Shown: one piece after another, positions 31,371-54,367 of the stretch | Numbering within the stretch: the stretch's first letter is position 1 | Layout: every line of letters begins with the position of its first letter | DNA from: Candidatus Methanoperedenaceae archaeon | GTDB lineage: Archaea; Halobacteriota; Methanosarcinia; Methanosarcinales; Methanoperedenaceae | Reading direction: 5' to 3' | Assembly (NCBI GenBank): GCA_963753595.1 | Contig: CAVWCX010000014.1 | Coordinates: forward strand, 39,196-103,195 | DNA length: 64,000 nucleotides | The notes under the pieces: generated by a model | The model's database searches: none | What the model was told of the DNA's origin: nothing | Seen by the model: the letters and a program-made list of their open reading frames with translations, nothing else | Program-made: the position numbers and the translations under genes

Positions 31371-32033
31371 ATGGCAGAGCTTGGGAAAATAGAAAAACCG
31401 GAAGCATCAACCTTTTCGGCAAAAAGGAAATTATATCTTGTCCCCACACTTCCTTTTGAAGACCTGGCTTCACAATATGATATTGACATGGTTAAAGTGG
31501 AGCGGTTCTGGGGAGAGGTAAGGGAAAAGATAAATTATTTCCTCTCAACTTATGGAAAGATCAGTACCATATATATGGAAGGAATAAATGAGGACGAAAA
31601 AGCAGGAATTGAATATTTCGAGAAAAATGGAAAAGATAATAATCACCACAAGTTAATAAAAACCCTCCTGGATAGTGGCGCAGTTGTGAAGGGCATTGAA
31701 AAACCCGGCCAGATGGAACGATCAAAGCTGCTTTTTGAGGAATACTCAAAATCTTTTTATCCGCAAGTACAGGAAATCCACAAAGGTTATTATGGCAAAG
31801 ATATCAATTTTGACAAATGGCGGGAATACCTGGTAGAAAAGATAAAGGAAATACAGGATGAGATGGGAAAATCGGCAACCAGGATACTTGGAGAATTACC
31901 TGCAGATTCATGTGGTGTCCTTCTGGTCACTGATGGAAGACCAATAGAATTCCCTGAAGGCATTGATATTTTCCAGATCAGGCCGCCAGCTTTTGATGAG
32001 ATAGAACGCAATATCCGGGAAAAGGTAAAATAA
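31371..32033 (+). CDS. hypothetical protein
   Basis: 220-aa ORF with an RBS-like gaggg upstream. Confidence 0.65.
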   Translation: MAELGKIEKPEASTFSAKRKLYLVPTLPFEDLASQYDIDMVKVERFWGEVREKINYFLSTYGKISTIYMEGINEDEKAGIEYFEKNGKDNNHHKLIKTLLDSGAVVKGIEKPGQMERSKLLFEEYSKSFYPQVQEIHKGYYGKDINFDKWREYLVEKIKEIQDEMGKSATRILGELPADSCGVLLVTDGRPIEFPEGIDIFQIRPPAFDEIERNIREKVK

Positions 32034-32043
32034 GGTGATCCAA

Positions 32044-32760
32044 TCAATCGGATGGCTCAACCGGAGTTGTAATAATTATCCCGCCTGTGGAAATCTCATA
32101 GGACAATAACTGGACAGGTGTCTTTGTATTTCTCATTTTCACAATATCCATCACCCTTTCCCTGCGGCCTGTATAAGGATTATCTCGTTTCATAAGCTGG
32201 ATAGCTCCGTAAGCTGAGTAAAGCGCAAGTTCAACGAATTCCCTGGAAACAACTCCTCCAAGAAGTACGAATGTAGTAATCCCTTTTTGTGCCATATTAT
32301 AAACAAGAAGATTGAACCTGTCACGGAACTCGGACGAAGTGAGATTTGATACATGGCTGCCAAGGCTGTCAATAATGAGAATATTTGTATCAACAGGCAA
32401 ATTCTCCGAAAATTGTATAAAATCACCTTTAACAGCCTCCATGCTGATACTTAATGCTTCTTTAATTTCCATCGCCCTGTATCCTGCGAGCTCAACAAAT
32501 TTCAAAAAACCCTTTTTTTCAAACTTCTCAAAGTCCCATCCAAATGATTTTCCCTGCTGCTTGAGCTCTGGCGCATCCTCCTCCGTGGAAACATATAAAA
32601 TCTTCATGCCTTCAAGGCAATTTGTGTATGCGAATTGAAGCCCGAAAATAGTCTTTCCACTTCCCGGATCACCCGTGATAATAATAGTTTTTCCCTTTGG
32701 GAATCCTCCTATTATCTCATCCAGTTCCGAAATACCTGTCTTGATCCTTTCCATGTTCAT
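32044..32760 (-). CDS. single-domain KaiC/RAD55-like ATPase
   Basis: KTGISELD, GDPGSGKT, STEE, IIDSL, KMR. Confidence 0.9.
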   Translation of the reverse strand: MNMERIKTGISELDEIIGGFPKGKTIIITGDPGSGKTIFGLQFAYTNCLEGMKILYVSTEEDAPELKQQGKSFGWDFEKFEKKGFLKFVELAGYRAMEIKEALSISMEAVKGDFIQFSENLPVDTNILIIDSLGSHVSNLTSSEFRDRFNLLVYNMAQKGITTFVLLGGVVSREFVELALYSAYGAIQLMKRDNPYTGRRERVMDIVKMRNTKTPVQLLSYEISTGGIIITTPVEPSD

Positions 32761-35258
32761 TTCTCCTTTATCTTTTCGTTCCTGAGTTGAATTTCAAATC
32801 TGCAAATTTTTGAACCGTTGGCAATACTTGATTTTTGTTCCACATTACCTTTAAGTCCGGTCCATGTGAAACTCCGTTTTGCAAGACTCCTGCAGATAAA
32901 ACAAAATATCGGATTGCCGCGAGCTTCATTTTTCCAGGGACAATTAATGAACTCCAGCACCTCTTTTTTCTCATCTCTTGTCACTCCATTTTCAATCCCG
33001 AAATTTGAAAACAATCCTGAGAGCCATGACATATAAAAAGTAAGCAATTGCGCAGGTTCATGATTAACATCCTTTTGTTTCATTTCTTCTTTAAACCTGG
33101 GCCTGACATTCATCTCAAATCTTTCAGAAAAATTTTTAATGAGGATATCTCTTACATGGGAAGGGACACCAGATGCAAAAACAGGCAGTGCGCTCACGAT
33201 AAAGCCATGTAATTCTGCCTTTGCTTTTTCTTTTTGCAGCTTTTCAGCTTCCTTACGTTCTGTGATATCTCTTGCTACATGTACAACATTGCTAATTTCT
33301 CCATTCTTATTTTTGATAGGATATGCACAAACTTCTACAAATTGAATAACGCCATTTTTTAAATGATGCACATGTTCGCATATTGAAGGAGCCCCGGTCT
33401 TCACGGTTATCTGAAGCGGGCATATATCGGGTGGACAGGGATTATCACTTTTATGTCCAATTTCATGACATTTCTTTCCGATAGCCTGTTCTTTCGAAAG
33501 ACCATAGACTTTCAGGAAAGACTTATTAGTGTCTATTATCGAGAAATTCTTTACATCAATTATAGTAATTGAATCATTGATACTATTAAGCACAGTCTCA
33601 GAAAATTCCTTTGACTGGCGAAGTAGTTCCTCAGCGCGCTTACGTTCGGTTATATCACGAACAACTGCCAGAATGTAACTTTTCTTCCCCGTGTCTAAAA
33701 TGTTGAGATTTACTTCAACAGGAAACACACTTCCATCTTTGCGTTTATGGAGGCCTTCCATTGTCACATTCTGTTTTTTTAAGATGTCTTTCACATGATT
33801 GCCCCATGAAGATTTATTAGGAATTGTTTCTTCAAAATCAAAAACGTGCATATTATGGAGTTCTTCCATTGAATATCCAAGGTTCATGCATGCTGTTTCA
33901 TTGCAGTCAATGATAATTCCTGTTTCCGGATCGTTAATAAAAACTGCATCTGTTGAGTTCGCAAAAAGCATCCTGAACAAACGAAGCTTTTCTTCTGCCT
34001 TGCGACTATCGGTTATGTCCTTAAGCGTCCCCATGGTCGCAACCCTTCCACCTAAATTTATAAGCGCCACAGTCATATTCATGATCAAACGTGTTTTCCT
34101 GTCCCGGTGAAGGGCATTGAACTCATATTCATGGGGAACATTTTCACCAGCCTGTCTGCGTGTATAATGATCAAAAACTTTCGCCATATCCTCTGGCGAG
34201 ATAAATTCCCTGAAATCTTTCCCTATTATTTCTTCCACTTCGTATCCGGCCAAATTCGCAAAAGCTTCATTTACGAATTGGAATTTCTGATCCTGGATAA
34301 TGAAAACACCATCCTGGATATTTTCGATCAAGGTCCGGTATTTTTCCTCTGAGTTCTGGAGCTTTTCTTCAGCTTCCTTTCGTTCAGTGATGTCCTCGAT
34401 CATACCGATCGCAAATTGCGGATCACCGTTTGCATCACGGACAAGGGAAACGGTTAGCCTTGCCCAGAATATGGTCTTATTCTTACGTATGTAGCGTTTT
34501 TTTATCATGTACTGGTTTTTCTTTCCCAGGATCAAATCATTGAACTGGCTCATATCCAGTTCTGAATCATCAGGATGAGTGAACTCTGTGAACACCTTTC
34601 CCTTGAGTTTTTCTTCCGTAAACCCGAGCATCTGCTGCAGTATATGGTTTGTTTCCAGGATTCGCCTTTGTGTGTCCACGCTGAACATACCAATGGGAGC
34701 TTCTTCAAAAGTAGCTTTGAATTGCGCCTCGCTTCTTCGAAGCTCTTCTTCGATCCGTTTTCGCTCTTCAATTTCCTTTTCAAGCTGGATTATGTTCTCC
34801 TCCAGCTTCTTGAAAATACGACGGCTGTACCGTTCAAGATACTCTTCTTCTTTTATTGGAGCGGGTTCTCTTATTTTCAGTTTGCCACTGGAAATATCAA
34901 GCAGAGCCTGTGTAATTTCTTTCACAAGTTCCCTGGGCTCAAGAGGTTTAATTATAAATCGAGAGACTCCGAGGGCATTGGCCAGTTCCCTATCTTTCTC
35001 AGTTACATAAGATGCGCTGTAGAATATAAATGGTAATTCTTTCGGGGATCTGCTTTTCCTGATCTCACGAAGCAGCATGAACCCATCCATCACAGGCATC
35101 ATGATATCTGAAACAACCATGTCAGGTTTTTGAGATGAAATGAGTTCCAATGCCTCGACCCCATTCCCGGCTTCGATTACCTCATAATTATTTGAGGAGA
35201 GCATTTTAGACAGCATCAATCTGTCAAGCCTGTTATCATCCACTACCAGCACTTTCAT
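32757..35258 (-). CDS. response regulator: REC, 4 PAS, V4R-like methanogen output domain (MetOD1-like)
   Basis: VVDD..SDIMMPVMDG; DITERK PAC ends; C-terminal CPW..NPIFCFICR..SIANG..CRF. Confidence 0.85.
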   Translation of the reverse strand: MKVLVVDDNRLDRLMLSKMLSSNNYEVIEAGNGVEALELISSQKPDMVVSDIMMPVMDGFMLLREIRKSRSPKELPFIFYSASYVTEKDRELANALGVSRFIIKPLEPRELVKEITQALLDISSGKLKIREPAPIKEEEYLERYSRRIFKKLEENIIQLEKEIEERKRIEEELRRSEAQFKATFEEAPIGMFSVDTQRRILETNHILQQMLGFTEEKLKGKVFTEFTHPDDSELDMSQFNDLILGKKNQYMIKKRYIRKNKTIFWARLTVSLVRDANGDPQFAIGMIEDITERKEAEEKLQNSEEKYRTLIENIQDGVFIIQDQKFQFVNEAFANLAGYEVEEIIGKDFREFISPEDMAKVFDHYTRRQAGENVPHEYEFNALHRDRKTRLIMNMTVALINLGGRVATMGTLKDITDSRKAEEKLRLFRMLFANSTDAVFINDPETGIIIDCNETACMNLGYSMEELHNMHVFDFEETIPNKSSWGNHVKDILKKQNVTMEGLHKRKDGSVFPVEVNLNILDTGKKSYILAVVRDITERKRAEELLRQSKEFSETVLNSINDSITIIDVKNFSIIDTNKSFLKVYGLSKEQAIGKKCHEIGHKSDNPCPPDICPLQITVKTGAPSICEHVHHLKNGVIQFVEVCAYPIKNKNGEISNVVHVARDITERKEAEKLQKEKAKAELHGFIVSALPVFASGVPSHVRDILIKNFSERFEMNVRPRFKEEMKQKDVNHEPAQLLTFYMSWLSGLFSNFGIENGVTRDEKKEVLEFINCPWKNEARGNPIFCFICRSLAKRSFTWTGLKGNVEQKSSIANGSKICRFEIQLRNEKIKEK

Positions 35259-36466
35259 TCCTTATCCCCCGCAGGAATCGAAAAACAGAATGTACTTCCT
35301 TCTCCGACCGTGCTTTTTACCCATATTCGTCCTCTGTGTGACTCAATTAAATATCTGGCAATTGCAAGACCAACCCCTACTCCACCATATCGCCGTGTGC
35401 TTTCTGAATCCACCTGGTATATTTTATCAAATACCTTTTGCAGTTTATCTGCTGGAATTCCTATTCCGGTATCCTTGAAACAGACCTGGATATATCTATC
35501 CTTTCTGCCTGCTGCTATTTCTACTTTCCCTCCTTTCCTGTTAAATTTGATAGCATTATCAAGAAGATTATTGAACACATGTTTCATCTGGTTCTTATCT
35601 GCGTTAACTAAAAGCCCATTTTCTATCGATTTACTGATCTCGATCTGAAACGCTTCTGATTTTGGCTTTAAATCCTCTGCTGTGGATTCGATCAGTTCTC
35701 CAATATCGACCTCTTCTATAACATGTGATAAAAGTCCTTTTTCGGCATAGGATATTTCTATAAGGCCTGAGACGACCGTATTTTCGCGCTCCAATGCGGC
35801 CATGCATTTTTCCAGCAGTTCCCTGCGCTTTGATGTGTTGTTTTCATCCATCGCAAGTTCAAGGTAGCCCGAAGCATGAATTAATGGGGTTTTGAGTTCA
35901 TGCGTCACATTGGAAATTATGTTATCTTTAAGGCGGTCAACGGTTTTTAATTCCGAAAGCGCGATCTCAAGCTTCTTGTTTGCATTTTCAAGTTCAAGCA
36001 CTTTATCTTCAAGCTTTTTAAATAATGTATGGCTGTATTTTGAAAGATATTCTGTTTCATCGGTTATTACAGGTTCTACCGGTCTTTTCCTGCCATAGTG
36101 ATAATCTTCAATTACTTTATTTATTTTCCTGATTAATATTTTAGGATCCTCAGGTTTGCGTATATAAGCGTTCGCCCCTACATCAAGGGCAAGTTTTTCG
36201 TCTTCTTCATCCTTGTAAATTGCGGTATAAAAAATCAGGGGAATATCTTTTAACGTTTCATTTTTCCTGAGTTCCCTGCAAAACTGGAATCCATCCATTT
36301 CAGGCATCATGATATCTGAAATTATAATGTCGGGTCTTGACATCTGGATTTTCTTCAGGGCTTCAATTCCATTTGAGGCCTCAAGAACTTTATAACCATT
36401 AGCTGCAAGTATTTTTGAAAGAAGCATTCTGCTATTTATTTCATCTTCCACTACCAGCACAATCAT
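35255..36466 (-). CDS. REC-HisKA-HATPase hybrid kinase
   Basis: DIMMPEMDG; THELKTPL; NLLDNAIKF; DTGIGI; GVGLAI. Confidence 0.92.
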   Translation of the reverse strand: MIVLVVEDEINSRMLLSKILAANGYKVLEASNGIEALKKIQMSRPDIIISDIMMPEMDGFQFCRELRKNETLKDIPLIFYTAIYKDEEDEKLALDVGANAYIRKPEDPKILIRKINKVIEDYHYGRKRPVEPVITDETEYLSKYSHTLFKKLEDKVLELENANKKLEIALSELKTVDRLKDNIISNVTHELKTPLIHASGYLELAMDENNTSKRRELLEKCMAALERENTVVSGLIEISYAEKGLLSHVIEEVDIGELIESTAEDLKPKSEAFQIEISKSIENGLLVNADKNQMKHVFNNLLDNAIKFNRKGGKVEIAAGRKDRYIQVCFKDTGIGIPADKLQKVFDKIYQVDSESTRRYGGVGVGLAIARYLIESHRGRIWVKSTVGEGSTFCFSIPAGDKE

Positions 36467-36828
36467 GGTTTTTTCGCCTCAAGGACTTTTTCAATATCTT
36501 TCATAATTACAAGAGGATTTATGGGTTTTTCAAAATATCCATCGCATCCGGCACTTATTACTTTTTCGCGGTCTCCTGCCATTGCGTATGAAGTAATTGC
36601 TATTATCGGGGTCTTCTGTCCGGATTCGCGGATCCTCTTTGTGGCCTCAAGCCCATCGATATCGGGAAGCTGTATATCCATCAGAATAAGTTCCGGGTGC
36701 AAATTATTTGCTTTTTCCACACCCTCAAGACCGCAAAAAGCCTCAATAACATCATGACCATACTTTTTCAAGACAAAGGTTAATAACTTCATGTTCTGTG
36801 GATTGTCTTCAATTACCAGTATCTTCAA
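36463..36828 (-). CDS. stand-alone receiver protein (DivK/CheY-like)
   Basis: IEDN, MDIQLP, ITSYAM, KP. Confidence 0.92.
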   Translation of the reverse strand: MKILVIEDNPQNMKLLTFVLKKYGHDVIEAFCGLEGVEKANNLHPELILMDIQLPDIDGLEATKRIRESGQKTPIIAITSYAMAGDREKVISAGCDGYFEKPINPLVIMKDIEKVLEAKKP

Positions 36829-39800
36829 ATTCTAACCTCCCGTGGTATGCGCAGGGAAAATATACTACCCTTATGGTACTCACTTTCCACACTTATCGTA
36901 CCTCCAAGCACTTCCCGGGTGAGCTTCATGGTAAGATATAAACCAAGTCCGGTTCCGGATGTTTTGGCCGTGAGTGATGACTCAAGCCTTGTAAATGCGG
37001 TAAAGAGTTTTGGAATATCTTCTTTCTTTATCCCGATCCCTGGATCTTTAATAGATATTTCTATTTCTTTATTAATAGACTTTGCTATTATTTTGATCTC
37101 ACCTTTTTCTGTGAATTTCACTGCATTTGAAAAAAGATTAATTAAGCACTGAAGCAGGCGCCTGCGGTCAGTGTTCAACTCCACATCTATAAAATCAATA
37201 TTCACCGAAAGCCCCTTTCCATTGAGCTCTTGTTTCAAAGTAGAAACTACTTCATCAATTACTCCTTTCAAATTGAACCTGGAAACATTGACCTCAAGTT
37301 TTCCTGCTTCTATCTTTGAAATATCGATAACATCGTTTATCAATGACAAAAGATGCTTTCCTGATGTGTTGACTATCTGGACCTGTTCTCTTTGCTCAGG
37401 TGTGAGTTCTCCCGACCAGCCTTCAAGAAGAATGCTGGTGAAACCGATTATGGAATTAAGGGGCGTCCTGAGTTCATGACTTGTACTGGCTATGAACATG
37501 GATTTCATGCGATCAAGTTCAATAAGTCGCTTGTTCGCTTTTTCAAGTTCATCAGCCGTATTATTCATATCCTCCATTAGATTAAGGAGACCTGACTGGC
37601 TCTCTTTTAGAGCAATTGTCCTTTCTTCCACTTTTGTTTCAAGTGTTTTTGCATATTCTTTTGTTTCTTCGTAAAGCTGAACGTTCTGGATTGAAAGCGC
37701 AACCTGCGAGGAAATAAGTTCAATGATCTTCAATTTTTTCTTGTCAGGTTTCTTATCCGTGCGGGTGAATATACATAGTACTCCCAGGCACTTTCCTCCT
37801 GTGATAAGGGGGAATGCTGCATGATACCGTATGTCCTCTTTGCGTGTAGCTTCCCTTGTGGCAAATTTGATCACAGCTTCGCGGTCAGGAAGGATAAGGG
37901 GCCGAAGGTCGCGAGCTGCTGCCCCGCACAGGCAATCACCTATTTTGACCTTATTTGTGGTAAGGTCAGCAATAGTCTCTTCTGATGTGGCCCTGTGTGC
38001 AGCTAACTGTAAATGATCATCCGGTTTTACAAGGCAAATAGTTCCTCCTTCAAGCCCCATTATCTTGATGCACTCGTCAAGGACAGTTTCAAATATCTGA
38101 TTTATATCAAGCAACCCGGTCGCGGTTGAGATTATTTTATTGATGATCCTGAGTTCCTCATTTGCTAATTGCATTTCATCTTTGGCAAGTTTTAGCTCTG
38201 TAATATCATTAAACGTAGTATAAACCTGATATGGTTTTATTTCTGCATACCTGGTTTGAGGTATTGCATTTATTTGTATCCATCGGTATTCTTTAACTTC
38301 AGGATTGAATACACCCATGACAACATCTTTTACTTCCTTCCGGGTCTGAAGTGTCACCATTGCCGGATGTTTCTGCGCCGGGAAGTCAGAACCATCCTCA
38401 TGGATCGCTTTCCACATCGGATCAATGGATGTCCGTCCTATCAAGTGGCCCGGTGATAAACCAAGTATCTTTTGCGCTGCGGGGTTTGCCGAAATTATTT
38501 TTCCGGATTCATCGTGATATATTACTCCCTGCGCCATTGTTTCATATAGTGTTCGATATTTCTCTTCTGAAAAGCTTAGTGCTTTTTCAACGCGCTTTCT
38601 CTCGGTGATATCAACGACAAATGCAAGGAAAAGCCTGCGTTGTGCCTGCTCTATCAATTGCAGATGGACCTCAACTGGATAAAGACTACCGTTTGCCCTT
38701 CTATTATCAGTGTAGAATAAGAGTTTCTTTTTTTCATGCCGGATAAGTGGCTTAATAAGTTTAAGGAATGATTCTTTATCATATTCGGATTTGATGTCAG
38801 GAGCTGTCATCGATCGCAGTTCTTCCAGAGTAAACCCAAGGTTCTTGCATGCCCCTGAATTCGCATAAGTGAACCTGAGGGTTTCAGGATCAAACATATA
38901 AATTTCATTAAGGCTTTTTTCAAGAATGGAAGAGAGGCTCATCTTTTCTTCTTCCCCTTTCCTTATATCTTCCACCAGGCGTGCATTTTCAAGCGCGATC
39001 GCTGCACTTGAAGCAAGCCCCTGCAGCATCTCGATATCCAGTTCATCGAACGGGCGGTGTTCTTTTGTGTTATGGATCTGGAATGAGCCCAACATCTCAC
39101 CTTTCCTGTCCAGAATAGGAACATTGGCAAGATTATTAAAACCAAGCGTTTTCCGGATATCCTGGATCACATAAGGGTCATTTTGGGCATCATTGGATAT
39201 ATAAGGTGATTTAGTCTCCATGACATGCCCGGGAACACCGTAACCCTTCTTGAAAACATAATCTATGGGAAAAAGCTTGCCATGCTCATTATATTCCGAA
39301 AACGTTATTTTTTCGTTAACGATCAAACCTGCAGTTCCGGCTGTCGAATCTGTAATTTCCATTGCCGAAACTATAAGATTTTGCAGGATGACAGGAATTT
39401 CAAGAACGGTATTTATCGTCTGTGCCGCCTTTGACAGGATGCGAAGCTGGTTATTCCGCCGGGATGCGAATTCTTCAGCACGCTTGCTTTGGGTGATGTC
39501 GCGTGCTGTGGCATAGGTAATTCCTTCATCTTTATTATAGTTTGCACGCCATGAAAGCCACAGCAATCTGCCATCTTTGCAAATATAACGATTTTCAAAG
39601 TTAAGCGAAGAACCTGTCTTGATTTGCCTTGCAATTTCATCAAGAGTAGACTGTTTGTCATCCGGATGGACGAAATCCACGAACGGTTTTGACAGGAGTT
39701 CTGTTTCTGAATATCCAAGAAGATCTGAGGAGGCCGGATTCACTTTCTTGAAAGCGCCATTTGGATCGGCGATTACCATCATATCCGAAGATATCTGGAA

Positions 39801-41828
39801 GAATTTGAAAAATTGTTCCCGTTCCAGTTCTGCCTTCTTGCGCTCGGTGATGTCCAGTACATGCACAAGATAACCAGATATGGATTTATTTTCGTTCCAT
39901 ATTGGTAATATACGGAGGTCAAGATAACATTGGCCCGATCTTGTTGTTTTGTATAAATTTAATTTCTTGACAAGATCAAAATTGAAAGTTAATTCAAATT
40001 CAATCGTTTCCCGATTTGAAAGCCTGTTTTTTGCATCCACTGGAAGATTTGGATCATCAAAAAGATTGAAATTCTTCACTTCTTCAATATTTTCAATACC
40101 AAAAAGGTCAAGACATTTCCTGTTAGCATCAATTAAATGACCGGTCTGATCATATATTTCAATTGCGACCGGGGATTGCTCAAAGATCCCCCTGAACCTC
40201 TCTTCACTTTCTTTTAGCGTTTCTTTTGCTTTCTTTTGCTCGGTGATATCCCTGACGATACATATATGCCCATTGTAATTTCCGTTCTCATCCCAGAGAG
40301 CCGTAGCTATGACATCCGTAGGGACTATACTGCCATCTTTCATGAGGCCTGGGACTTCTCCTTTGAAAAGCCCCGTATCCTTATTATGCAACGTTACATC
40401 CAGGCCCTTTTCGACTCCGGGTATCATCTCAGATGGAGTAATTTTCCGCCAGGTCTTACTGATCAAATCTTCCTGGGAATAACCGAATATTTTTGCATAT
40501 GCTGCATTTACGTAGATATACCGGTCTTTTTCATTGCATATGGTAACGCCATCAGTACTACTGGCTATTGCTTTAAGAAGGCGGTTCTTTTCATCATCAG
40601 CACGCTTGCGCTCGGTGATATCGGTGTGAACACCTACGATAACGCGGCCATATTGAGGGTGGTCAAATAAAGAAACGTTAGCATAAGACCAGAAAAGAGT
40701 TCCATCTTTCTTAATATTATTGACCTCTCCGTGCCATTCTCCGGTTTTTCTGAGGAGACCCAAAATCTCTTCTTTTGTTTCCTGCGGCGTCTTATCTGTT
40801 GGGGCATTTAATATGCTGACATCCTTTCCTATCATTTCACCTGGCTCGTAACCAAACATTTGTTCAAATTTGGAATTAGTATGTTTGATCAAACCATCTT
40901 CCATTCCCAAAAGATAGATCCCCTCTGAGACATTCTTAAAAATTTCACTGTTAAGGCGCGCTTCTTCTTCCGCATGTTTGCGTTGTGTGATGTCCCGGAT
41001 ATTTGTAAGAAATCCTTCGATTTTTCCATCTTTTTTCAGGATTGTTGTACTTGTTTCTACTAAAATCAATTCTCCGCTTTTTGATCTCAGGCTTAACTCC
41101 AATTTATTAAGGAGACTGCCTGCATTAGGATTGATCCTCCCTTCTAAAACGGCATTTTTGAACTGTTTAACGATACCTGGAAGCTCTTTGATCTCCAAAA
41201 TTCCGAGCTTGAAAAAATATTTCCCAATTACTTCTTCGGGCGTGAAACCCAGAGTTTCTTTAATTTTATTGTTGATTGTCAATATTTTTCCAAAACTATC
41301 CACTTGTAGAATTATATCATTTGAATACTCGAAAAGCCTGCGATATTTTCTCTCGCTTTCCTGAAGCTCCTCAGTTCTCTCAATTACACGCACCTCCAGA
41401 TCATCATGTGCCTTCAAAAGTGCCTCTTGTGCTACTTTGCGCTCGGTATCATCCCGCCAGATACTGATTATAAGACCTTCTTCTTCAATATCGATCTTAT
41501 CAAGAAGGGAGGAGTTGACCGAAAAGTATCTCATCCCTTCTGTGGTCTTCATAGCAAAATCAACATTTATTGCCATGCCATTTTGGCTGGTCTGGCCTTC
41601 GAGTCTTAGCCATGTATCCCTGGCATTGGGGTCCATCTTTCCAAGCCATATGAAAAGGTTCGTTTCGATAACATCATGGATCTTACTGGAGAAGAATTTA
41701 CAGAATTTTTCATTGACAAAAATGATGTTCTTAGCCGAATCTGTGATCACTATGCCATCAGCCGATGCACGCAGAAGTTTCTCGAAAAATTTAACGGTCT
41801 GCTGTAAATTCTGTGCTTTTTCCATCAT
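36825..41828 (-). CDS. cytoplasmic multi-PAS, 2x GAF histidine kinase
   Basis: 1667 aa; repeated DITE/QRK; ALENARL and SIQNVQL GAF ends; SHELRTPL; GTGLGL; no TM segments. Confidence 0.93.
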   Translation of the reverse strand: MMEKAQNLQQTVKFFEKLLRASADGIVITDSAKNIIFVNEKFCKFFSSKIHDVIETNLFIWLGKMDPNARDTWLRLEGQTSQNGMAINVDFAMKTTEGMRYFSVNSSLLDKIDIEEEGLIISIWRDDTERKVAQEALLKAHDDLEVRVIERTEELQESERKYRRLFEYSNDIILQVDSFGKILTINNKIKETLGFTPEEVIGKYFFKLGILEIKELPGIVKQFKNAVLEGRINPNAGSLLNKLELSLRSKSGELILVETSTTILKKDGKIEGFLTNIRDITQRKHAEEEARLNSEIFKNVSEGIYLLGMEDGLIKHTNSKFEQMFGYEPGEMIGKDVSILNAPTDKTPQETKEEILGLLRKTGEWHGEVNNIKKDGTLFWSYANVSLFDHPQYGRVIVGVHTDITERKRADDEKNRLLKAIASSTDGVTICNEKDRYIYVNAAYAKIFGYSQEDLISKTWRKITPSEMIPGVEKGLDVTLHNKDTGLFKGEVPGLMKDGSIVPTDVIATALWDENGNYNGHICIVRDITEQKKAKETLKESEERFRGIFEQSPVAIEIYDQTGHLIDANRKCLDLFGIENIEEVKNFNLFDDPNLPVDAKNRLSNRETIEFELTFNFDLVKKLNLYKTTRSGQCYLDLRILPIWNENKSISGYLVHVLDITERKKAELEREQFFKFFQISSDMMVIADPNGAFKKVNPASSDLLGYSETELLSKPFVDFVHPDDKQSTLDEIARQIKTGSSLNFENRYICKDGRLLWLSWRANYNKDEGITYATARDITQSKRAEEFASRRNNQLRILSKAAQTINTVLEIPVILQNLIVSAMEITDSTAGTAGLIVNEKITFSEYNEHGKLFPIDYVFKKGYGVPGHVMETKSPYISNDAQNDPYVIQDIRKTLGFNNLANVPILDRKGEMLGSFQIHNTKEHRPFDELDIEMLQGLASSAAIALENARLVEDIRKGEEEKMSLSSILEKSLNEIYMFDPETLRFTYANSGACKNLGFTLEELRSMTAPDIKSEYDKESFLKLIKPLIRHEKKKLLFYTDNRRANGSLYPVEVHLQLIEQAQRRLFLAFVVDITERKRVEKALSFSEEKYRTLYETMAQGVIYHDESGKIISANPAAQKILGLSPGHLIGRTSIDPMWKAIHEDGSDFPAQKHPAMVTLQTRKEVKDVVMGVFNPEVKEYRWIQINAIPQTRYAEIKPYQVYTTFNDITELKLAKDEMQLANEELRIINKIISTATGLLDINQIFETVLDECIKIMGLEGGTICLVKPDDHLQLAAHRATSEETIADLTTNKVKIGDCLCGAAARDLRPLILPDREAVIKFATREATRKEDIRYHAAFPLITGGKCLGVLCIFTRTDKKPDKKKLKIIELISSQVALSIQNVQLYEETKEYAKTLETKVEERTIALKESQSGLLNLMEDMNNTADELEKANKRLIELDRMKSMFIASTSHELRTPLNSIIGFTSILLEGWSGELTPEQREQVQIVNTSGKHLLSLINDVIDISKIEAGKLEVNVSRFNLKGVIDEVVSTLKQELNGKGLSVNIDFIDVELNTDRRRLLQCLINLFSNAVKFTEKGEIKIIAKSINKEIEISIKDPGIGIKKEDIPKLFTAFTRLESSLTAKTSGTGLGLYLTMKLTREVLGGTISVESEYHKGSIFSLRIPREVRI

Positions 41829-43963
41829 TTTAATTCATCCTTTTGCGCAGAAACCGGCTTTATTTCCACAGCACTGAATTTATACTCAGGTTGCTTTGAG
41901 TGGATATCATAAACAGGATTTGTAACAAGATTTGCAGCCATATCATCACTTGAGCAAAGCGCTTTACCAAAATGGAAGGGCATGAAAACCGTACCTTTCT
42001 GGACACTGTCAGTTATCCGGGCATTCCCTCTTGCAGTACCCCTTCGTGATGTGACCTCGACCAGATCTCCCTCGTTTATGCCAATCATTTGTGCATCATG
42101 CGGGTGAATATTTACGATATTATCAGGTGCTGCATTATTTAGATACGGGACTCTCCCGGTACGTGTACGGGTATTGAAATGCCCTTCCAGTCGTCCGGTT
42201 ATGAGTATGAATGGATAATCCTTGTCCGGATTTTCAGCCGGCCCGACATAATCACGGAAAAGCAATGCAGCCCTGCCATCAGGCCTGGGAAAATGCATAT
42301 CTGTGAAAAGGCGCATCGTACCCGGATGGTTTTCTTCAGGACAGGGAAGCTGAAGACCCACAACTCCACGAAGCCGTTCATAGGTCACACCATTCATATC
42401 ACATATGCGTCCGCGGGTCAGGCCTTTCCATTCTTCGAACACCTCCTGCGGCGATGTATATGGAAATTCTTTTTCAAAACCCATAGCCCTGGCTATGAGC
42501 CATATTATTTCATAATCAGGTTTTGCAACACCTGGAGGTTCAACTATTTTTTCGACCAGTTCTATTCGCCGTTCAGAAGAAATGAATGTCCCCGTCTTTT
42601 CACACCACTGGGCTGCCGGAAGTATTACATTTCCCAGCAGAGTTGTCTCCGTGGGATGGAATATATCCTGTACCACAAGCAGTTCAGCCTTTGCCAGTCC
42701 TTCTTCTACCCACCTGGTATTCGGAAGTGAAGCTGCAGGATTAGTTGTTGTGATCCACAGGGCGCGAATATCGCCGCTATGGAGACCTTCGATGATCTCC
42801 ATGATTGAACGCCCCGGAGTGGATTTGATATTAGTCTGCGGAACACCCCAATACTTTGCCACTTCTTTTCGATGCTGCTCGTTAGTAATTTGCCGCATCC
42901 CCACAAGTAAATGTGAGAGTGCGCCAACCCAGCGGTTTCCCATTGCATTTGCCTCGCCTGTGATCGACAGCGGTCCTGCTCCGGGTTTACATAGATTTCC
43001 CGTGAGAATGGAGAGGTTTTGCAGGGTATTGTTTTTAAAGACAGCCTGTGTCGAATGGTTGTATCCCTGGAACCAGAATGTGAGCATCGCTTTTGAATTG
43101 CCTATCATTCGCGCCGCTTCAATGATCTGTTTTTCCGGTAATCCGGTTATTACGGCCGCTTTTTCGGGTGAATATCCTTCCACCAGTTTTTTTAGGTCAG
43201 ATAGGCCGCTTGCATATTTTTCAACATTTTCCTCATCAACAAATCCCTCTTTAAGAAGTACGTAAGCCAGGGAATTATTCAGGGCAACATCAGTGCCTGG
43301 CCTGATCCGCAGGTGCAGGTCCGCCAGTCCTGATGTTTTTGTTCTCCGGGGATCAACGACGATCACCTTTGTTCCATTTTTCTTCTTTGCCATACTTAAG
43401 CGGTGAAACATTACTGGTGTTGATATTGCCATGTTGCTTCCGGCTATGAAGAAAAGGTCTGCTTCTTCTATGTCTGCATAACAGGTCAAAGGGGCGTCTG
43501 CGCCAATTGTTGATAAAAACCCGGCTGCCGTACTTGCCATACAAAGCCTGGTACTGCATTCGATATTATTAGTGCCTATCAAGCCCCTCATTAATTTGTT
43601 CATGAGATAGTATTCTTCTGTCAGGTTAGCTGCGCCACCATAAAAGGCAACTGAATCCGGCCCATATTTTTTGATAATTCGGTTAAATTCGTTAGCTGTA
43701 TGACTGATTGCTTCGTCCCAGCTAACAGGAACAAAATCATCTCCCCGGTGTATCATGGGTTGAGTCAGCCGTCCATGGGCAGTGAACATGGGCGGGATGT
43801 TGGCAGCCAATGTGCATATATGTCCATCATTAACCGGATGCCCTTTCATGCCCTTGATCTCAATGACCTTTCCATTTACGACGCCAACCATAAGCCCGCA
43901 GCCAAATCCACAGTAGGGACATGTTGATTTGCTCCATTTTATATTCAATAGGCTGCCATTCAT
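41825..43963 (-). CDS. molybdopterin oxidoreductase, NasA/NarB nitrate-reductase-like, divergent
   Basis: TCPYCGFGC..C 4Fe-4S motif, RLCMAS Mo ligand, SKQPEYK; ATG at 43963 after ggtggag; no Tat signal. Confidence 0.88.
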   Translation of the reverse strand: MNGSLLNIKWSKSTCPYCGFGCGLMVGVVNGKVIEIKGMKGHPVNDGHICTLAANIPPMFTAHGRLTQPMIHRGDDFVPVSWDEAISHTANEFNRIIKKYGPDSVAFYGGAANLTEEYYLMNKLMRGLIGTNNIECSTRLCMASTAAGFLSTIGADAPLTCYADIEEADLFFIAGSNMAISTPVMFHRLSMAKKKNGTKVIVVDPRRTKTSGLADLHLRIRPGTDVALNNSLAYVLLKEGFVDEENVEKYASGLSDLKKLVEGYSPEKAAVITGLPEKQIIEAARMIGNSKAMLTFWFQGYNHSTQAVFKNNTLQNLSILTGNLCKPGAGPLSITGEANAMGNRWVGALSHLLVGMRQITNEQHRKEVAKYWGVPQTNIKSTPGRSIMEIIEGLHSGDIRALWITTTNPAASLPNTRWVEEGLAKAELLVVQDIFHPTETTLLGNVILPAAQWCEKTGTFISSERRIELVEKIVEPPGVAKPDYEIIWLIARAMGFEKEFPYTSPQEVFEEWKGLTRGRICDMNGVTYERLRGVVGLQLPCPEENHPGTMRLFTDMHFPRPDGRAALLFRDYVGPAENPDKDYPFILITGRLEGHFNTRTRTGRVPYLNNAAPDNIVNIHPHDAQMIGINEGDLVEVTSRRGTARGNARITDSVQKGTVFMPFHFGKALCSSDDMAANLVTNPVYDIHSKQPEYKFSAVEIKPVSAQKDELK

Positions 43964-44222
43964 GAATCTTTCTCCACCAACCCCTGCACCTGCAAAGGTC
44001 ACGTTTTTTGTGACGTTTTTTGCAATACTTATGATTATGTAATATCCCTTATATTAAAATGATGTTTTTTTCTGTGGTAATGTTTGGAAATAATCTTTTG
44101 AAATACAGGGGAAATTATCACACAAAAAAATCCAAAATACACACAAAATCATTCCGACGGATAACCTTAAATATTACATAACACAATATGATTTATATGA
44201 TTATGATGATTGAATAATCGGT

Positions 44223-44292
44223 GTCCGAGCCCGACCTCCTAACGGGTGCTCCTCTGTTCGCTATATGGGGGTGTGAATCCCCCCTCGGACCA
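44223..44292 (+). ncRNA. candidate tRNA-like small RNA
   Basis: GTCCGAG/CTCGGAC 7-bp stem, GGGGG-TGTGAAT-CCCCC T-arm, CCCG/CGGG hairpin; upstream TTTATAT and downstream T-rich tract. Confidence 0.5.
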
Positions 44293-44358
44293 ACTTTCTT
44301 CTATTTAAATTCCACGCGAACTCAAAATATTTATGTAATCCCGCTATTGAACGAAAAA

Positions 44359-44712
44359 ATGGAAAAAACCAGGTTTGTATATATTTTGATCGGGGGTTTT
44401 TTTGGTTCGGCATTAAGAGAGTTTCTTTCGTTATTGATTCCCGGTGTTTTCGGCATTTTATTTGTAAATATAATCGGATGTTTTGTCCTGGGCTACCTTA
44501 TGTACGCAACTGAACTTGGTTTTTTCAGTGAAAAAGACCGATATCTCATAGGTATCGGTTTTTGCGGCGGCCTGACAACATTTTCAACGTTCATAGTTCA
44601 GACCATGCAATTTCCAGTCTCGATTGCCTTATTGAATGTTACAGCTAACATTGGTTTTTGTCTCGTTGGCGTTTTCCTTGGAAGAATATTTGCAAAGGGG
44701 CTAAGAGCATGA
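44359..44712 (+). CDS. crcB: fluoride channel Fluc/CrcB
   Basis: GGFFGSALR, VNIIG, GFCGGLTTFSTF. Confidence 0.92.
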   Translation: MEKTRFVYILIGGFFGSALREFLSLLIPGVFGILFVNIIGCFVLGYLMYATELGFFSEKDRYLIGIGFCGGLTTFSTFIVQTMQFPVSIALLNVTANIGFCLVGVFLGRIFAKGLRA

Positions 44713-45056
44713 ACTTGATTCCTATACTATTAGCAGGCTTCGGGGGAGCGCTTGGCGCATTGCTGCGCTATCTTGTATCAGGGATCTATCCTGTGTGGAG
44801 GGATATTCCAACCGGGACGCTGCTTGTGAATTTTCTTGGTTCGACGGCACTTTCTGTGATCACATTTGGCACAAATCCCCTTCCTTACTTTGCAGATGCG
44901 GGACTTCTCGGTGGATTTACAACATTCTCCACTTTCAGTTACGAAAGTTTCCAGCTTCTTGAACGCAGGGAGTTTAGAATTTTTGCAGCTAATGTTTTTT
45001 TGAGCCTGCTTCTTTGCGCGGGAGGTGTTGTTTTAGGAAAATGGATCGTATCATAA
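44709..45056 (+). CDS. crcB: fluoride channel Fluc/CrcB, second subunit
   Basis: GGALGALLRY, GTLLVN, GGFTTFSTF; ATGA overlap with the first copy. Confidence 0.92.
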   Translation: MNLIPILLAGFGGALGALLRYLVSGIYPVWRDIPTGTLLVNFLGSTALSVITFGTNPLPYFADAGLLGGFTTFSTFSYESFQLLERREFRIFAANVFLSLLLCAGGVVLGKWIVS

Positions 45057-46065: not shown

Positions 46066-46530
46066 CTATTTGACATGTGCCTTGACGAACTTCAGGCATA
46101 ATGTAAATACACTATTCTCTGCCTGGTTATCATCCTCTTTTAAGACTCTTATGGACATTTCTTCATATGTTTTATAGACCATTAATCTACAGTTATAGAG
46201 TTCTTTTCTAAAATCAAAAGCTTCCACAGGTGTATAATCTAAATTTAGACCATTATCTTCCAGAAACATTTCTATTGCGGTTAATGCGGTTCTATGGTTT
46301 GCATCAGGGAAAGCCTGCAGAAGTATTATATTTTTTAAATAATACGCAGCTACTTCAAGGATATCTCGGTTCTTCGGGGCATATTCGATTAGTTTTCTTA
46401 TTTCATGCATCTTAATGGGATAATCTTCACTTCCAGAATATTCTATCCGGGGGTATTTTGAGGCACGGATTTTTATTTGCTCATTGATATCCAGTAATAT
46501 TTCCAACGTAAGAAGAATGATCTGACTCAA
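46066..46530 (-). CDS. Fic/Doc family protein
   Basis: LQAFPDANHRTA, a variant of the Fic motif. Confidence 0.82.
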   Translation of the reverse strand: MSQIILLTLEILLDINEQIKIRASKYPRIEYSGSEDYPIKMHEIRKLIEYAPKNRDILEVAAYYLKNIILLQAFPDANHRTALTAIEMFLEDNGLNLDYTPVEAFDFRKELYNCRLMVYKTYEEMSIRVLKEDDNQAENSVFTLCLKFVKAHVK

Positions 46531-51624: not shown

Positions 51625-54367
51625 ATGGACGAGTACCAGCTTGATTATTTCAAAGAGAACGGATTTGTGCGAAAACAGTGCCCCAAATGCGGCAAGAATT
51701 TCTGGACGAGGGATTCCGAAACTGAATTTTGCGGAGACCCGCCCTGCGTTTCATATTCATTTATAGGAAAACCCGTTTTCAAGAAAGAATACGATATATC
51801 CTCTATGCGGGAGGCATATCTTTCATTTTTCGAGAAAGAGGGGCATACCCGTGTTAACCGTTATCCTGTTATCGCACGCTGGCGTGATGATATTTATCTC
51901 ACGATTGCTTCAATTGCGGATTTCCAGCCCTTCGTTACATCCGGCCTTGTTCCGCCGCCTGCTAATCCTCTCACTATATCGCAGCCCTGCATCCGTCTTG
52001 ATGACCTTGACGCAGTAGGCAGGAGCGGCCGCCACCTTACAACATTTGAGATGATGGCGCATCACTGCTTTAACAAACGAGGGCAGGAAATATACTGGAA
52101 GGACAGGACTGTTGAGTTGTGTGATTCTCTGCTTGCCAGTCTTGGCCTTGATCTGAACGCGGTGACATATAAGGAAGCGCCCTGGGCAGGCGGGGGAAAT
52201 GCAGGCCCCAGCGTTGAAGTGCTGGTTGGCGGACTTGAACTTGCAACTCTTGTCTTTATGGACCTGAAGCAGACAAAAGGCGGCTCAATAAATATAAAAG
52301 GTGAGACCTATGAAAAGATGGACAATTATATTGTTGATACAGGTTATGGTCTTGAGAGGTTCGTGTGGGCATCAAAAGGCTCGCCCACGATATACGATGC
52401 CGTGTTCCCTAAAATTGTGAATGAACTCATGGATCTTGCAGGTATTGAGCATTCTATTGAAAATCCTGAATATGCAGAGATTTTCTCGCAAAATGCAAGG
52501 TTAGCAGGTGTAATGGATATCAGCGGGCAGGCCAACCTTCTCCAGCTCAGGAAGAAAGTGGCAGACAGCATCGGAACGACCGTTGAAAAACTCCAGAGGA
52601 TCATGGTCCCGGTCGAGACCGTTTATTCTATCACCGACCATACAAGATGCCTTGCCTTCATGCTGGGTGACGGCATAATCCCGTCGAACGTGAAAGCGGG
52701 TTATCTCACAAGACTTGTGCTTCGCCGGACGCTTCGGCTTATGAAAGAACTGGATATCAGGGAACCCATGATTGAAATTATCGAGATGCAGATACGGAAT
52801 TTCCCTGAATATCCGGAATTCAGGGAGCGGCTTGAAACGATAAGGGAAATTGTTGCACTTGAAGAGGAAAAGTACGCTGATACCATTGAGCGCGGAACGA
52901 AACTTGTAAAGAAGACGGCTTTGCATTTCAAGGAGAAAAAACAGGCAATTCCGCTTGGTGAAATCATACAGTTATACGATACGCACGGTATCCCGCCTGA
53001 AATAACCCGTGAAGTCGCAAAAGAAGCAGGTGTCGTAGTGGAACTCCCGGATACGTTCTATTCACTTGTGGCGCAATCGCACAGCAAGGCGCAAACAGAA
53101 GAAGAAGAGACATCTTGCGCTTGATTTACCGCTAACACAAAAGCTTTATTATGAAGATCCCGAACAAATAGAGTTTGAGGCAACGGTTCTTGATGTTATT
53201 GAAAACAATGTGATCCTTGACAGGACTGTGTTCTACCCTGAAGGCGGAGGCCAGCCTGCTGATCACGGGACGCTTTCAGTCAATGATTATGTTGCAAACG
53301 TAACGGATGTACAGAACCTAAATGGAGTTATAGTCCATGAGACCGATTCTGATTTTGGCTTTAAGAAAGGCGATACTGTAAAAGGGAAAATTGACTGGGA
53401 GCGCCGGTTAGCCCATATGCGCCACCATACTGCCACACATATTGTGAACGAAGCGGCTAAATCCGTGTTAGGAAAGCATATCTGGCAAACAGGCGCCCAG
53501 AAATCCACGGACAGGGCAAGGCTTGACCTGACGCATTTTAAACGTATTACTGATGAAGAGTTCAAAGAGATAGAACTTCTTGCTAATAAAGCCGTAATGA
53601 AGAACCAGCCTGTATTCATCGACTGGATGGACAGGATCGAGGCAGAACAGCGTTACGGTTTTGTGCTTTACCAGGGCGGTGTGCCGCCGGGAAAGGATAT
53701 CCGTATCCTCCGGGTGGGTAATGATGTGGAAGCCTGCGGCGGGACGCATGTTTCAAATACAGGATTGATAGGGCCTATCAAGCTCATTAAGACAGAGAGG
53801 ATCCAGGATGGTGTTGAGCGAATCGAGTTCTCAGCAGGTGAAGCTGCGGTTAAACGCATGCAGGAAAGGGATGAACTGTTAAACAGTGCCTCGGAAGCGC
53901 TTCGTGTTTCCCCTGACCAGCTTCCTGTTACCGTGAACCGGTTCTTTGATGAATGGAAGGAATTCAAGAAGGAGAACGAGCGGCTGAAGGCAGAACTTGC
54001 GGAAGTGAGAGTGAAAGCGATGATGAGCGATGCTGTTGATATCAATGGCCTGAAAGTTCTCGCCAGGAAGATCCCCCATGCTGACGTTGAAGAGCTTATC
54101 AAGGCTGCCACAGAATTCAGCAAGAACGACGATGTTGTAGCGATCCTTGCAAGTGATAAAAGCGGGGTCAAGATCGTTGTGTCGGCGGGGGCGCGCGCGC
54201 AGAAAATGGGGGTGAACTCAGGCGCAATTGTGCGCGAGATGTCAAAGTTCCTGGGCGGAGGCGGTGGAGGGAAGCCGGGAATAGCGCAGGGCGGAGGGAC
54301 GGATGCTTCGAAGATAGGGGAGGCGCTGGAGAAGGGCGTGGAGATGGTGAGGGAGAAAGTGAAGTAA
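51625..54367 (+). CDS. alaS: alanyl-tRNA synthetase (archaeal type); apparent frameshift near 53110
   Basis: ASIADFQP, HLTTFEMMAHH, DTGYGLER, HHTATH, ACGGTH, GGGGGG C-Ala domain. Confidence 0.95.

Follow-up and report, generated by a model that had tools for sequence, protein, structure and literature searches.

A NapA-like molybdoprotein paired with a PAS histidine kinase in Methanoperedens and several bacterial phyla: a possible enzyme-based sensor

The window analysed here is a stretch of 64,000 nucleotides from a Candidatus Methanoperedenaceae archaeon (assembly GCA_963753595.1, contig CAVWCX010000014.1, positions 39,196 to 103,195), and the system in question is a chain of six minus-strand genes at 32044–43963 of this window. 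The chain is headed by a gene for a molybdenum (Mo) protein that resembles nitrate reductases, followed by a gene for a soluble histidine kinase. These first two genes form a pair that recurs across phyla, with one particular PAS subfamily at the start of the partner protein in 30 of 33 assessable loci. The explanation that we favour, and to which we give an even chance of being right, is that the pair constitutes an enzyme-based input module, comparable with the HoxBC-HoxJ system, in which the state of the enzyme sets the activity of the kinase.

A translationally coupled gene pair that recurs across phyla

The six genes overlap one another by 4 nucleotides (nt), the start codon of one overlapping the stop codon of the preceding one at five out of five junctions (ATGA four times and TTGA once), with a purine-rich stretch ahead of each. 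Domains were called with Pfam and NCBIfam models. The open reading frames (ORFs), domains and junctions bear out the preliminary description of this DNA, which had listed six minus-strand genes with overlaps of 4 nt; its gene list holds with one correction, in that the third gene, encoding a receiver (REC), starts with TTG and not with ATG. The Mo gene (41825–43963, minus strand) encodes a cytoplasmic, NapA/Nas-like protein of the molybdenum bis(pyranopterin guanine dinucleotide) (Mo-bisPGD) type, 712 amino acids (aa) long and composed of the domains Molybdop_Fe4S4, Molybdopterin and Molydop_binding. Its ORF extends over 41825–44002; the ATG at 43963, which is preceded by a GGTGGAG stretch, is most likely the start, and yields 712 aa as in the orthologues (711–712 aa). 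Overlapping its stop by 4 nt is the start of the kinase gene (36825–41828, minus strand), for a soluble protein of 1667 aa with a module-specific N-terminal PAS, more PAS domains, two GAF domains, HisKA and HATPase_c. The module-specific PAS (kinase residues about 7–138; 41415–41810, minus strand) was defined by alignment, an AlphaFold2 (AF2) model and co-folding.

Of 37 Methanoperedens genomes, 4 encode an orthologue of the Mo protein (81–100% identity); nothing else in the 61 genomes searched matches at more than 35%. In the three other Mo-positive Methanoperedens genomes the PAS kinase, of 816, 936 or 1171 aa, comes directly after the Mo gene, and the complete six-gene layout recurs in one of the three (G032). 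The conserved unit is the first two genes and not the six-gene operon; of the signalling operon proposed earlier, the pairing of Mo gene and PAS kinase survives the comparison and the six-gene layout does not. In G032 (L019, 16301–19878) the Mo gene is itself preceded, on the same strand, by overlapping genes for MEDS-PAS, REC-PAS, REC and HAMP-HisKA-HATPase proteins, and the module sits there inside a larger signalling island.

A scan of contigs with one genome per species yielded 36 loci with a Mo protein 62–87% identical. Three of these end at the Mo gene or within it, leaving 33 assessable loci, which were classified by crude ORF calling, clustering and Pfam searches of representatives. 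In 30 of the 33 the Mo gene is intact and the next gene, on the same strand, encodes a soluble protein with this PAS subfamily at its N terminus; most gaps between the two fall in the range −38 to +99 nt, with start codons called crudely, and the next-gene protein is a kinase in all annotated loci except L026. As for the other three, in L033 an ORF inserted on the opposite strand parts the two genes of the pair, in L055 the Mo gene is a fragment and the PAS kinase is present, and L045 is the sole locus with a different, REC-first hybrid kinase. The adjacency of the PAS kinase is thus conserved among the homologues, and no close homologues were found in nitrate-assimilation clusters without kinases, the arrangement that the preliminary description had named as the contrary outcome. 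The assessable loci represent six or more phyla; record titles name Nitrospirota, Thermodesulfobacteriota, anammox Planctomycetota, Nitrospinota, Chloroflexota, Asgard-labelled bins and Methanoperedens.

When 454 ORFs from crude calling were clustered, only kinase and REC clusters proved common across phyla. No nitrite reductase, transporter, NasST/NtcB-type regulator or Nap partner is a conserved neighbour in the clustered loci. The annotated outputs are REC, REC-REC, REC-PAS-GGDEF-EAL and MetOD1 proteins, and none of the response regulators that were scanned showed a DNA-binding domain. The length of the partner protein runs from 253 aa, a PAS alone in L026, up to 1667 aa, and the minimal kinase, PAS-HisKA-HATPase, measures 363–382 aa.

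A few loci have peculiarities of their own. In L033, from a Scalindua genome, a 220-aa opposite-strand ORF (12201–12863) and about 2.4 kb separate the Mo gene from the PAS kinase, and the insertion looks like a mobile element. The 253-aa PAS-only partner without kinase core occurs in L026 (12169–12930) and L060, both of one Desulfobacterales lineage, and is followed by opposite-strand genes. Two Asgard-labelled bins, L052 (Heimdallarchaeota) and L054 (Thorarchaeota), hold the module with a Mo protein 63–71% identical, which could reflect transfer or binning contamination.

A dedicated PAS domain and its predicted contact with the enzyme

The N-terminal PAS is the only part of the partner protein that accompanies the enzyme. 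The first ~130 residues are alignable throughout (alignment A1: 29 rows, mean column identity 52%) and include 11 invariant residues (F8, E10, G19, N33, F36, E49, W55, W67, S101, S116 and W118); alignment A1 has no invariant Cys or His, nor a conserved Cys of the LOV type. This special PAS is present once per genome in five out of five bacterial genomes checked. Its AF2 model has a predicted local distance difference test (pLDDT) score of 90.7, and a fold search with the model returned only generic LOV, NifL and other PAS matches at 13–25% identity.

Co-folding of the enzyme with the kinase N-terminal PAS, suggested in the preliminary description, was performed in three runs, using alignment A2 for the Mo protein and A1 for the PAS, together with three controls. 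The interface score (ipSAE, derived from predicted aligned errors) was 0.64, 0.63 and 0.65, and the best control reached 0.00; the partners had a pLDDT of 81 or more, and contact agreement between runs was 86% or higher. The ipSAE mark is reached by 58 of 80 solved complexes and by 2 of 110 mismatched pairs, counts that hold only roughly here because our own alignments were used. The model thus predicts that the Mo protein physically binds the kinase N-terminal PAS. The predicted contacts fall on Mo protein residues 150–152, 256, 260, 308–312, 358–364, 381–383, 561–571 and 687–688, with none in the iron-sulfur (Fe-S) domain. Three contact segments lie 9–15 residues past C141, Q299 and R344, which line the active site. 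From the domain boundaries of FdhF-type enzymes we infer that the contact side is probably that of the substrate funnel.

Among the PAS residues, E49 has the predicted contacts of lowest error, with residues 566, 568, 151 and 152 of the Mo protein. All 43 Mo-linked rows, 15 of them outside the co-fold alignment, retain it, as does the window. Among the rows from orphans, i.e. special-PAS proteins without a Mo gene, E49 gives way to another residue in 5 of 18, in at least three lineages: Gly takes its place in one Methanoperedens lineage, Lys in L070 and Ala in L090. One further locus, of unknown context, has a replacement as well. Since the rows are related, these replacements represent few events and not many. 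Other changes in the held-out Mo-linked rows are S101T, S116T and S116G.

Nature and origin of the molybdenum protein

The Mo protein scores above the cut-offs of PF04879 (55 bits), PF00384 (236 bits) and PF01568 (112 bits). Its Fe-S cysteines are C15, C18, C22 and C50; a motif that begins at residue 15 leaves no room for a Tat (twin-arginine translocation) or Sec signal, in line with the original remark that the enzyme lacks a Tat signal. The best match in the PDB is the monomeric, periplasmic NapA of Desulfovibrio desulfuricans (2JIM/2NAP; 537 bits over the full length). In the alignment to NapA, Cys141 falls on the Mo ligand Cys140, M142 on Met141 and R344 on Arg354. The four Fe-S cysteines, Cys141, M142 and R344 are invariant in 31 of 31 rows of the clade alignment A2. 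Clade-specific differences from NapA near the active site are Q299, on Met308, and H688, in place of Gly.

By its sequence the protein belongs to the Mo/W-bisPGD (dimethyl sulfoxide reductase) superfamily, in the Nap/Nas/Fdh branch, where it stays under every curated NCBIfam cut-off: 637.4 versus 666.25 for formate dehydrogenase alpha (TIGR01591), 516 versus 1100 for NasC (NF047855), the second-best match, 427 versus 1000 for NasA_Halo (NF041323), and 406 versus 904 (NF010055) and 391 versus 931 (TIGR01706) for NapA. Formate dehydrogenase alpha (TIGR01591/FdhF) was rejected on its score and because the active-site motif is Cys-Met and not Cys/Sec-His; we take Cys-Met to denote the nitrate-reductase type and Sec/Cys-His the formate-dehydrogenase type. 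Assignment to NapA failed on the missing Tat signal, the missing Nap partner gene and the scores. Assignment to NasC, NasA or NarB failed on the scores and on the absence of nitrite reductase and transport genes from the flanks and from the conserved neighbour clusters. The sources label many members of the clade 'nitrate reductase' or 'narB', and the source names of the closest matches show the host to be a Candidatus Methanoperedens.

The host genome, which is 92% complete, contains one other PF00384 protein (a 433-aa ORF) and, on another contig, one NIR_SIR ORF of 286 aa; no NarG-type enzyme and no convincing NrfA was found in it, which agrees with the part of Leu et al. 2020 (PMC7327174) that we draw on. 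That part reports NarB/NasA in one Methanoperedens metagenome-assembled genome, laterally acquired and nearest to Ca. Magnetobacterium, calls its assimilatory role unclear because there is no nitrite reductase, and does not mention a kinase beside it.

Origin was assessed in 201 Desulfobacterales genomes. The clade, at 69% identity or more, is found in five, all of which also hold the special PAS. Across the 201 genomes the next identity tier (48–50%) has Tat leaders, NapG/NapH-like Fe-S partners, an NrtA-like binding protein and a membrane Cache-HAMP-GAF kinase, and the 40–42% tier has NapC/NirT; the leaders of outgroup proteins at 40–50% identity read SRR(D/E/S)F(I/L)K. A quick maximum-likelihood tree splits the clade from the 40–50% tiers with a value of 100 in the Shimodaira-Hasegawa-like approximate likelihood-ratio test (SH-aLRT), and places Methanoperedens as a monophyletic group among bacteria. 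Descent of the Mo protein from NapA-type nitrate reductases, with loss of the export signal and of the Nap partners, is part of the explanation that we favour, and we regard it as plausible to the same even degree. The special PAS occurs in 7 of 37 Methanoperedens genomes and in none of 24 genomes of other genera of the order, so that the two genes were apparently acquired jointly by the genus through lateral transfer. Judged from these comparisons, the pair is horizontally mobile and has been transferred jointly across phyla.

Weighing an enzyme-based input module

In the input module that we propose, a NapA-derived cytoplasmic protein, devoid of an export signal and of NapG/H/C-type partners, would be co-produced with a soluble histidine kinase and dock on the dedicated N-terminal PAS of that kinase. 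The state of the molybdoenzyme (substrate-bound, turning over, or redox) would then set kinase activity, with information flowing from enzyme to kinase and with nitrate as the most likely ligand. The signal would pass in Methanoperedens to REC, REC-kinase and REC-PAS-MetOD1 proteins plus a KaiC-like ATPase, and in anammox bacteria to REC-REC and REC-PAS-GGDEF-EAL proteins. That the enzyme serves the kinase is suggested by the cross-phylum pairing, the dedicated PAS, the translational coupling, the loss of Tat signal and Nap partners, the signalling rather than transcriptional outputs and the co-fold that passed its controls. It is also suggested by an asymmetry of loss: kinases that lack the enzyme are common, but only 1 of 33 loci has the enzyme and no PAS partner.

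Several results weigh against this proposal, foremost the loci in which the kinase occurs alone. The reverse test, a metagenome scan with an 8-row PAS alignment, gave 30 loci with a full PAS match, of which 11 have a Mo gene upstream, 15 have none although 700 nt or more of the upstream region is available, and 4 do not extend far enough. All 11 invariant residues are kept in 10 of the 15 metagenome orphans and in 13 of all 18 orphan rows. Three of the 37 Methanoperedens genomes (G004, G030 and G034; 97–99% complete) have the PAS kinase and no Mo orthologue. Their orphan kinases sit behind the same leader as the Mo gene of the window, and remnants of the Mo gene persist, about the first seven codons in G030 and G034 and a piece matching residues 27–49 in G004 and L058; these differing remnants point to two different deletions. 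Relatives of Desulfobacteraceae Eth-SRB2 (~90% nucleotide identity) lack exactly the span of the Mo ORF and keep the region upstream of it, and other Mo remnants are kept at L067, L081 and L107. On the PAS tree the orphans are dispersed and require five or more changes, and in Desulfobacterales three of the 201 genomes, beyond the five Mo-positive ones, have the PAS alone. As read from these loci, the Mo gene has been deleted at least two times in Methanoperedens and also in Desulfobacteraceae. Repeated deletion with retention of the kinase means that the enzyme is not an obligatory input.

Further points on the same side come from conservation. The ratio of nonsynonymous to synonymous substitution rates (dN/dS) of the PAS, compared without L022 pairs, is 0.19–0.28 for Mo-linked pairs and 0.21–0.32 for deep orphan pairs. 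On this measure the deep orphans resemble the Mo-linked domains; the single exception is a young orphan lineage that lost E49, with values of 0.45–0.73. The predicted interface residues on the Mo protein are no more conserved than the protein average (0.74 versus 0.77). With no invariant Cys or His and only a generic fold match, no cofactor or ligand can be named for the PAS. Finally, the invariance of all catalytic residues would fit a working metabolic reductase equally well; this retention does not discriminate, because regulatory hydrogenases keep their catalytic residues too. Of the initial proposal that the molybdoprotein is the input of the kinase cascade, the pairing, the dedicated PAS and the co-fold speak for it, and the kinase that outlives the Mo gene speaks against an obligatory role.

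One genome, Desulfococcaceae HSG9 (G180, L106–L108), combines several arrangements: one locus where the Mo gene is intact and the kinase after it is a REC-first hybrid lacking the special PAS, a second locus with Mo remnants ahead of a special-PAS kinase, and a third with a special-PAS protein of about 1500 aa.

The strongest competing explanation, unlikely in our judgement but carrying real weight, is that the Mo protein works as a normal nitrate reductase of the NarB/NasA kind, cytoplasmic and dependent on ferredoxin, in assimilation or detoxification, and that the kinase is a linked regulator that senses nitrate, nitrite, NO or redox through its own PAS without forming a complex. Such an enzyme would have its catalytic and Fe-S residues intact and no signal peptide, as NarB and NasA have none, and the kinase would be expected to survive alone if the PAS senses by itself. 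All of this is observed, and a further argument against the input module is that a ferredoxin-dependent NarB-type enzyme needs no dedicated partner gene. Regulator genes adjoining Mo-enzyme genes are also known; perchlorate reductase reportedly has PAS and kinase genes alongside. NasC is the second-best NCBIfam match (516 bits), but this score and that for NasA (427) are far under the respective cut-offs of 1100 and 1000. A plain reductase also predicts the reverse asymmetry of loss, whereas here the regulator outlives its target and a target without regulator occurs in only 1 of 33 loci. It leaves aside as well that the clustered loci have no nitrite reductase or transporter as conserved neighbour, that the scanned response regulators have no DNA-binding output, that the co-fold passed its controls, and that E49 is kept in all Mo-linked rows and lost in some orphans.

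Improbable, though not negligible, is a flow in the reverse direction, in which the kinase PAS docks on the enzyme and gates or inhibits it, for instance by blocking substrate access, the enzyme being a post-translational target. The predicted interface would suit such a role, as it lies on domains II–IV and not on the Fe-S side, at what is probably the funnel side by the domain boundaries of FdhF-type enzymes; this location of the funnel is, however, an inferred one. Likewise, the 253-aa PAS-only partner without kinase core in L026 and L060 indicates that binding alone may have a function, but the kinase and phosphorelay parts are kept in nearly all loci, and the asymmetry of loss, with the kinase commonly found without the enzyme and the enzyme without its PAS partner in 1 of 33 loci, also argues against a gated enzyme. 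That the adjacency is a chance or lineage-specific arrangement without functional link can practically be dismissed: few Methanoperedens genomes hold the gene (4 of 37), but 30 of the 33 assessable loci, drawn from different phyla and with flanks that are otherwise unrelated, have the pair, and all five Mo-positive genomes among the 201 Desulfobacterales also hold the PAS.

Remaining features of the locus and its surroundings

Upstream of the ATG at 43963 the sequence reads as a putative promoter and 5' leader of the operon (43964–44070, minus strand), with a TATA-like A/T-rich box at about 44049–44059 (minus strand) and, between this box and the Mo start codon, an inverted repeat GTCAC-N7-GTGAC at about 43998–44014 (minus strand). 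The leader, with both the box and the inverted repeat, also precedes orphan kinase genes in two other Methanoperedens genomes (L100 and L101), and the conserved inverted repeat with the A/T box may be an operator.

Downstream of the pair, on the minus strand, follow a stand-alone REC of 121 aa with a TTG start (36463–36828), a REC-HisKA-HATPase_c kinase of 403 aa that forms a second phosphorelay tier (35255–36466), a REC-4xPAS-MetOD1 output protein of 833 aa (32757–35258; MetOD1, PF18546, expect value (E) 9e-50) and, as the last of the overlapping series, a single-domain KaiC-like ATPase of 238 aa (32044–32760; PF06745, E 3e-55). By Pfam, genes 2–5 contain the parts of a two-component phosphorelay, namely HisKA and HATPase_c kinase domains and REC receivers. 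KaiC-like ATPases and MetOD1 proteins are typical archaeal signalling outputs; here they are lineage-specific additions, present in the window and in G032 only and absent from the bacterial modules.

The flanks within about 10 kb encode glycosyltransferases, DUF1616/NosD-like, radical SAM and PIG-L proteins, two CrcB, Fic, AMMECR1, DUF2111, PcrB, a TrkA-N/DHH protein and alanyl-tRNA synthetase (AlaRS). No gene for a nitrite reductase, transporter, ferredoxin, flavoprotein or molybdenum cofactor (Moco) synthesis, and none for a NapB, NapC, NapG or NapH electron-transfer partner, lies within that distance of the operon, as the preliminary description had stated for metabolic partners. Divergent from the operon are tandem paralogues of the fluoride channel CrcB (44221–44712 and 44658–45056, plus strand), the first with an N-terminal extension of ~50 aa whose DNA is strongly conserved in other Methanoperedens genomes; an Rfam scan of 43900–44500 gave no match, and thus no riboswitch in the divergent crcB leader. 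Convergent with the KaiC-like gene is a 220-aa ORF without Pfam match (31371–32033, plus strand), which has a 217-aa homologue in the same place in L025/G032. A 154-aa ORF at 46066–46530 (minus strand) has a weak Fic/DOC match (E 1e-6). AlaRS is encoded as two overlapping ORFs of 499 and 433 aa (51625–53124 and 53066–54367, plus strand), which cover positions 2–435 and 455–552 of Pfam tRNA-synt_2c, respectively; a frameshift, a mistake in the assembly or a genuine split could account for this.

Relation to known systems and implications

With D. desulfuricans NapA (2NAP/2JIM) the Mo protein shares the four-domain Mo-bisPGD architecture, the Fe-S cysteines and the Cys ligand of Mo; unlike NapA, it has no Tat signal and no NapC, NapG, NapH or NapM-type partner nearby, and is paired with a PAS kinase. 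Like NarB, NasA and NasC it is a cytoplasmic single-subunit Mo-bisPGD enzyme with an N-terminal 4Fe-4S cluster, but it remains below their equivalog cut-offs, has no conserved neighbour of the nitrite reductase, transporter or NasST/NtcB type, and belongs to a host without a clear assimilatory nitrite reductase.

The kinases HoxJ and HupT contact their hydrogenases through an N-terminal PAS. In the pairs HoxBC-HoxJ of Ralstonia eutropha and HupUV-HupT of Rhodobacter, according to the passages of PMC6978683 used here, a cytoplasmic homologue of a metabolic enzyme that has kept its active site is thought to signal by direct contact with the kinase. The present pair resembles HoxBC-HoxJ in that an enzyme homologue is encoded with a soluble kinase, conserved as a pair in 30 of 33 loci. 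It differs in having Mo-bisPGD and not NiFe, a presumed ligand that is nitrate or another oxyanion and not H2, a distribution over many phyla, binding that is modelled, and observed outputs that are not transcription factors for cognate metabolic genes.

Nitrate availability is coupled to two-component or antiterminator signalling by NreABC of staphylococci, NasS-NasT and NarX/NarQ. The ligand binders of these systems are GAF, NrtA-like and periplasmic four-helix domains and not enzymes; among them NreA binds its ligand as a protein of its own and modulates the PAS kinase NreB. Unlike NreB, the Mo-linked kinase has a PAS without the four cysteines. Enzyme-based kinase input is already known as a kind of mechanism, but no description of the pairing of this Mo protein with a PAS kinase was found in the open-access full-text literature, in keeping with the earlier remark that no described system has this layout.

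Slightly short of an even chance, in our estimate, is the fuller proposal that this is the first molybdoenzyme-based sensor. In it, a NapA derivative would act as a nitrate/oxyanion- and redox-sensing kinase subunit on a dedicated PAS. It would form a mobile two-gene module common to anammox bacteria, cable bacteria, magnetotactic Nitrospirota, Desulfobacterales and Methanoperedens that feeds cyclic di-GMP, phosphorelay and KaiC-like networks, and not nitrate metabolism. The pair of enzyme and minimal kinase of 363–382 aa is small enough for direct biochemical and structural tests. If the kinase does take its input from the molybdoprotein, enzyme-based sensing would reach from the hydrogenases to the Mo-bisPGD superfamily, and the orphan 'NarB/NasA' genes that have puzzled genome papers would be accounted for, with caution called for when such genes are scored as nitrate-assimilation capacity in metagenomic surveys. 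The module would then provide the dominant organisms of the anoxic nitrogen cycle, namely anammox bacteria, cable bacteria and nitrate- or metal-dependent methane oxidisers, with a cytoplasmic sensor of nitrate and redox state.

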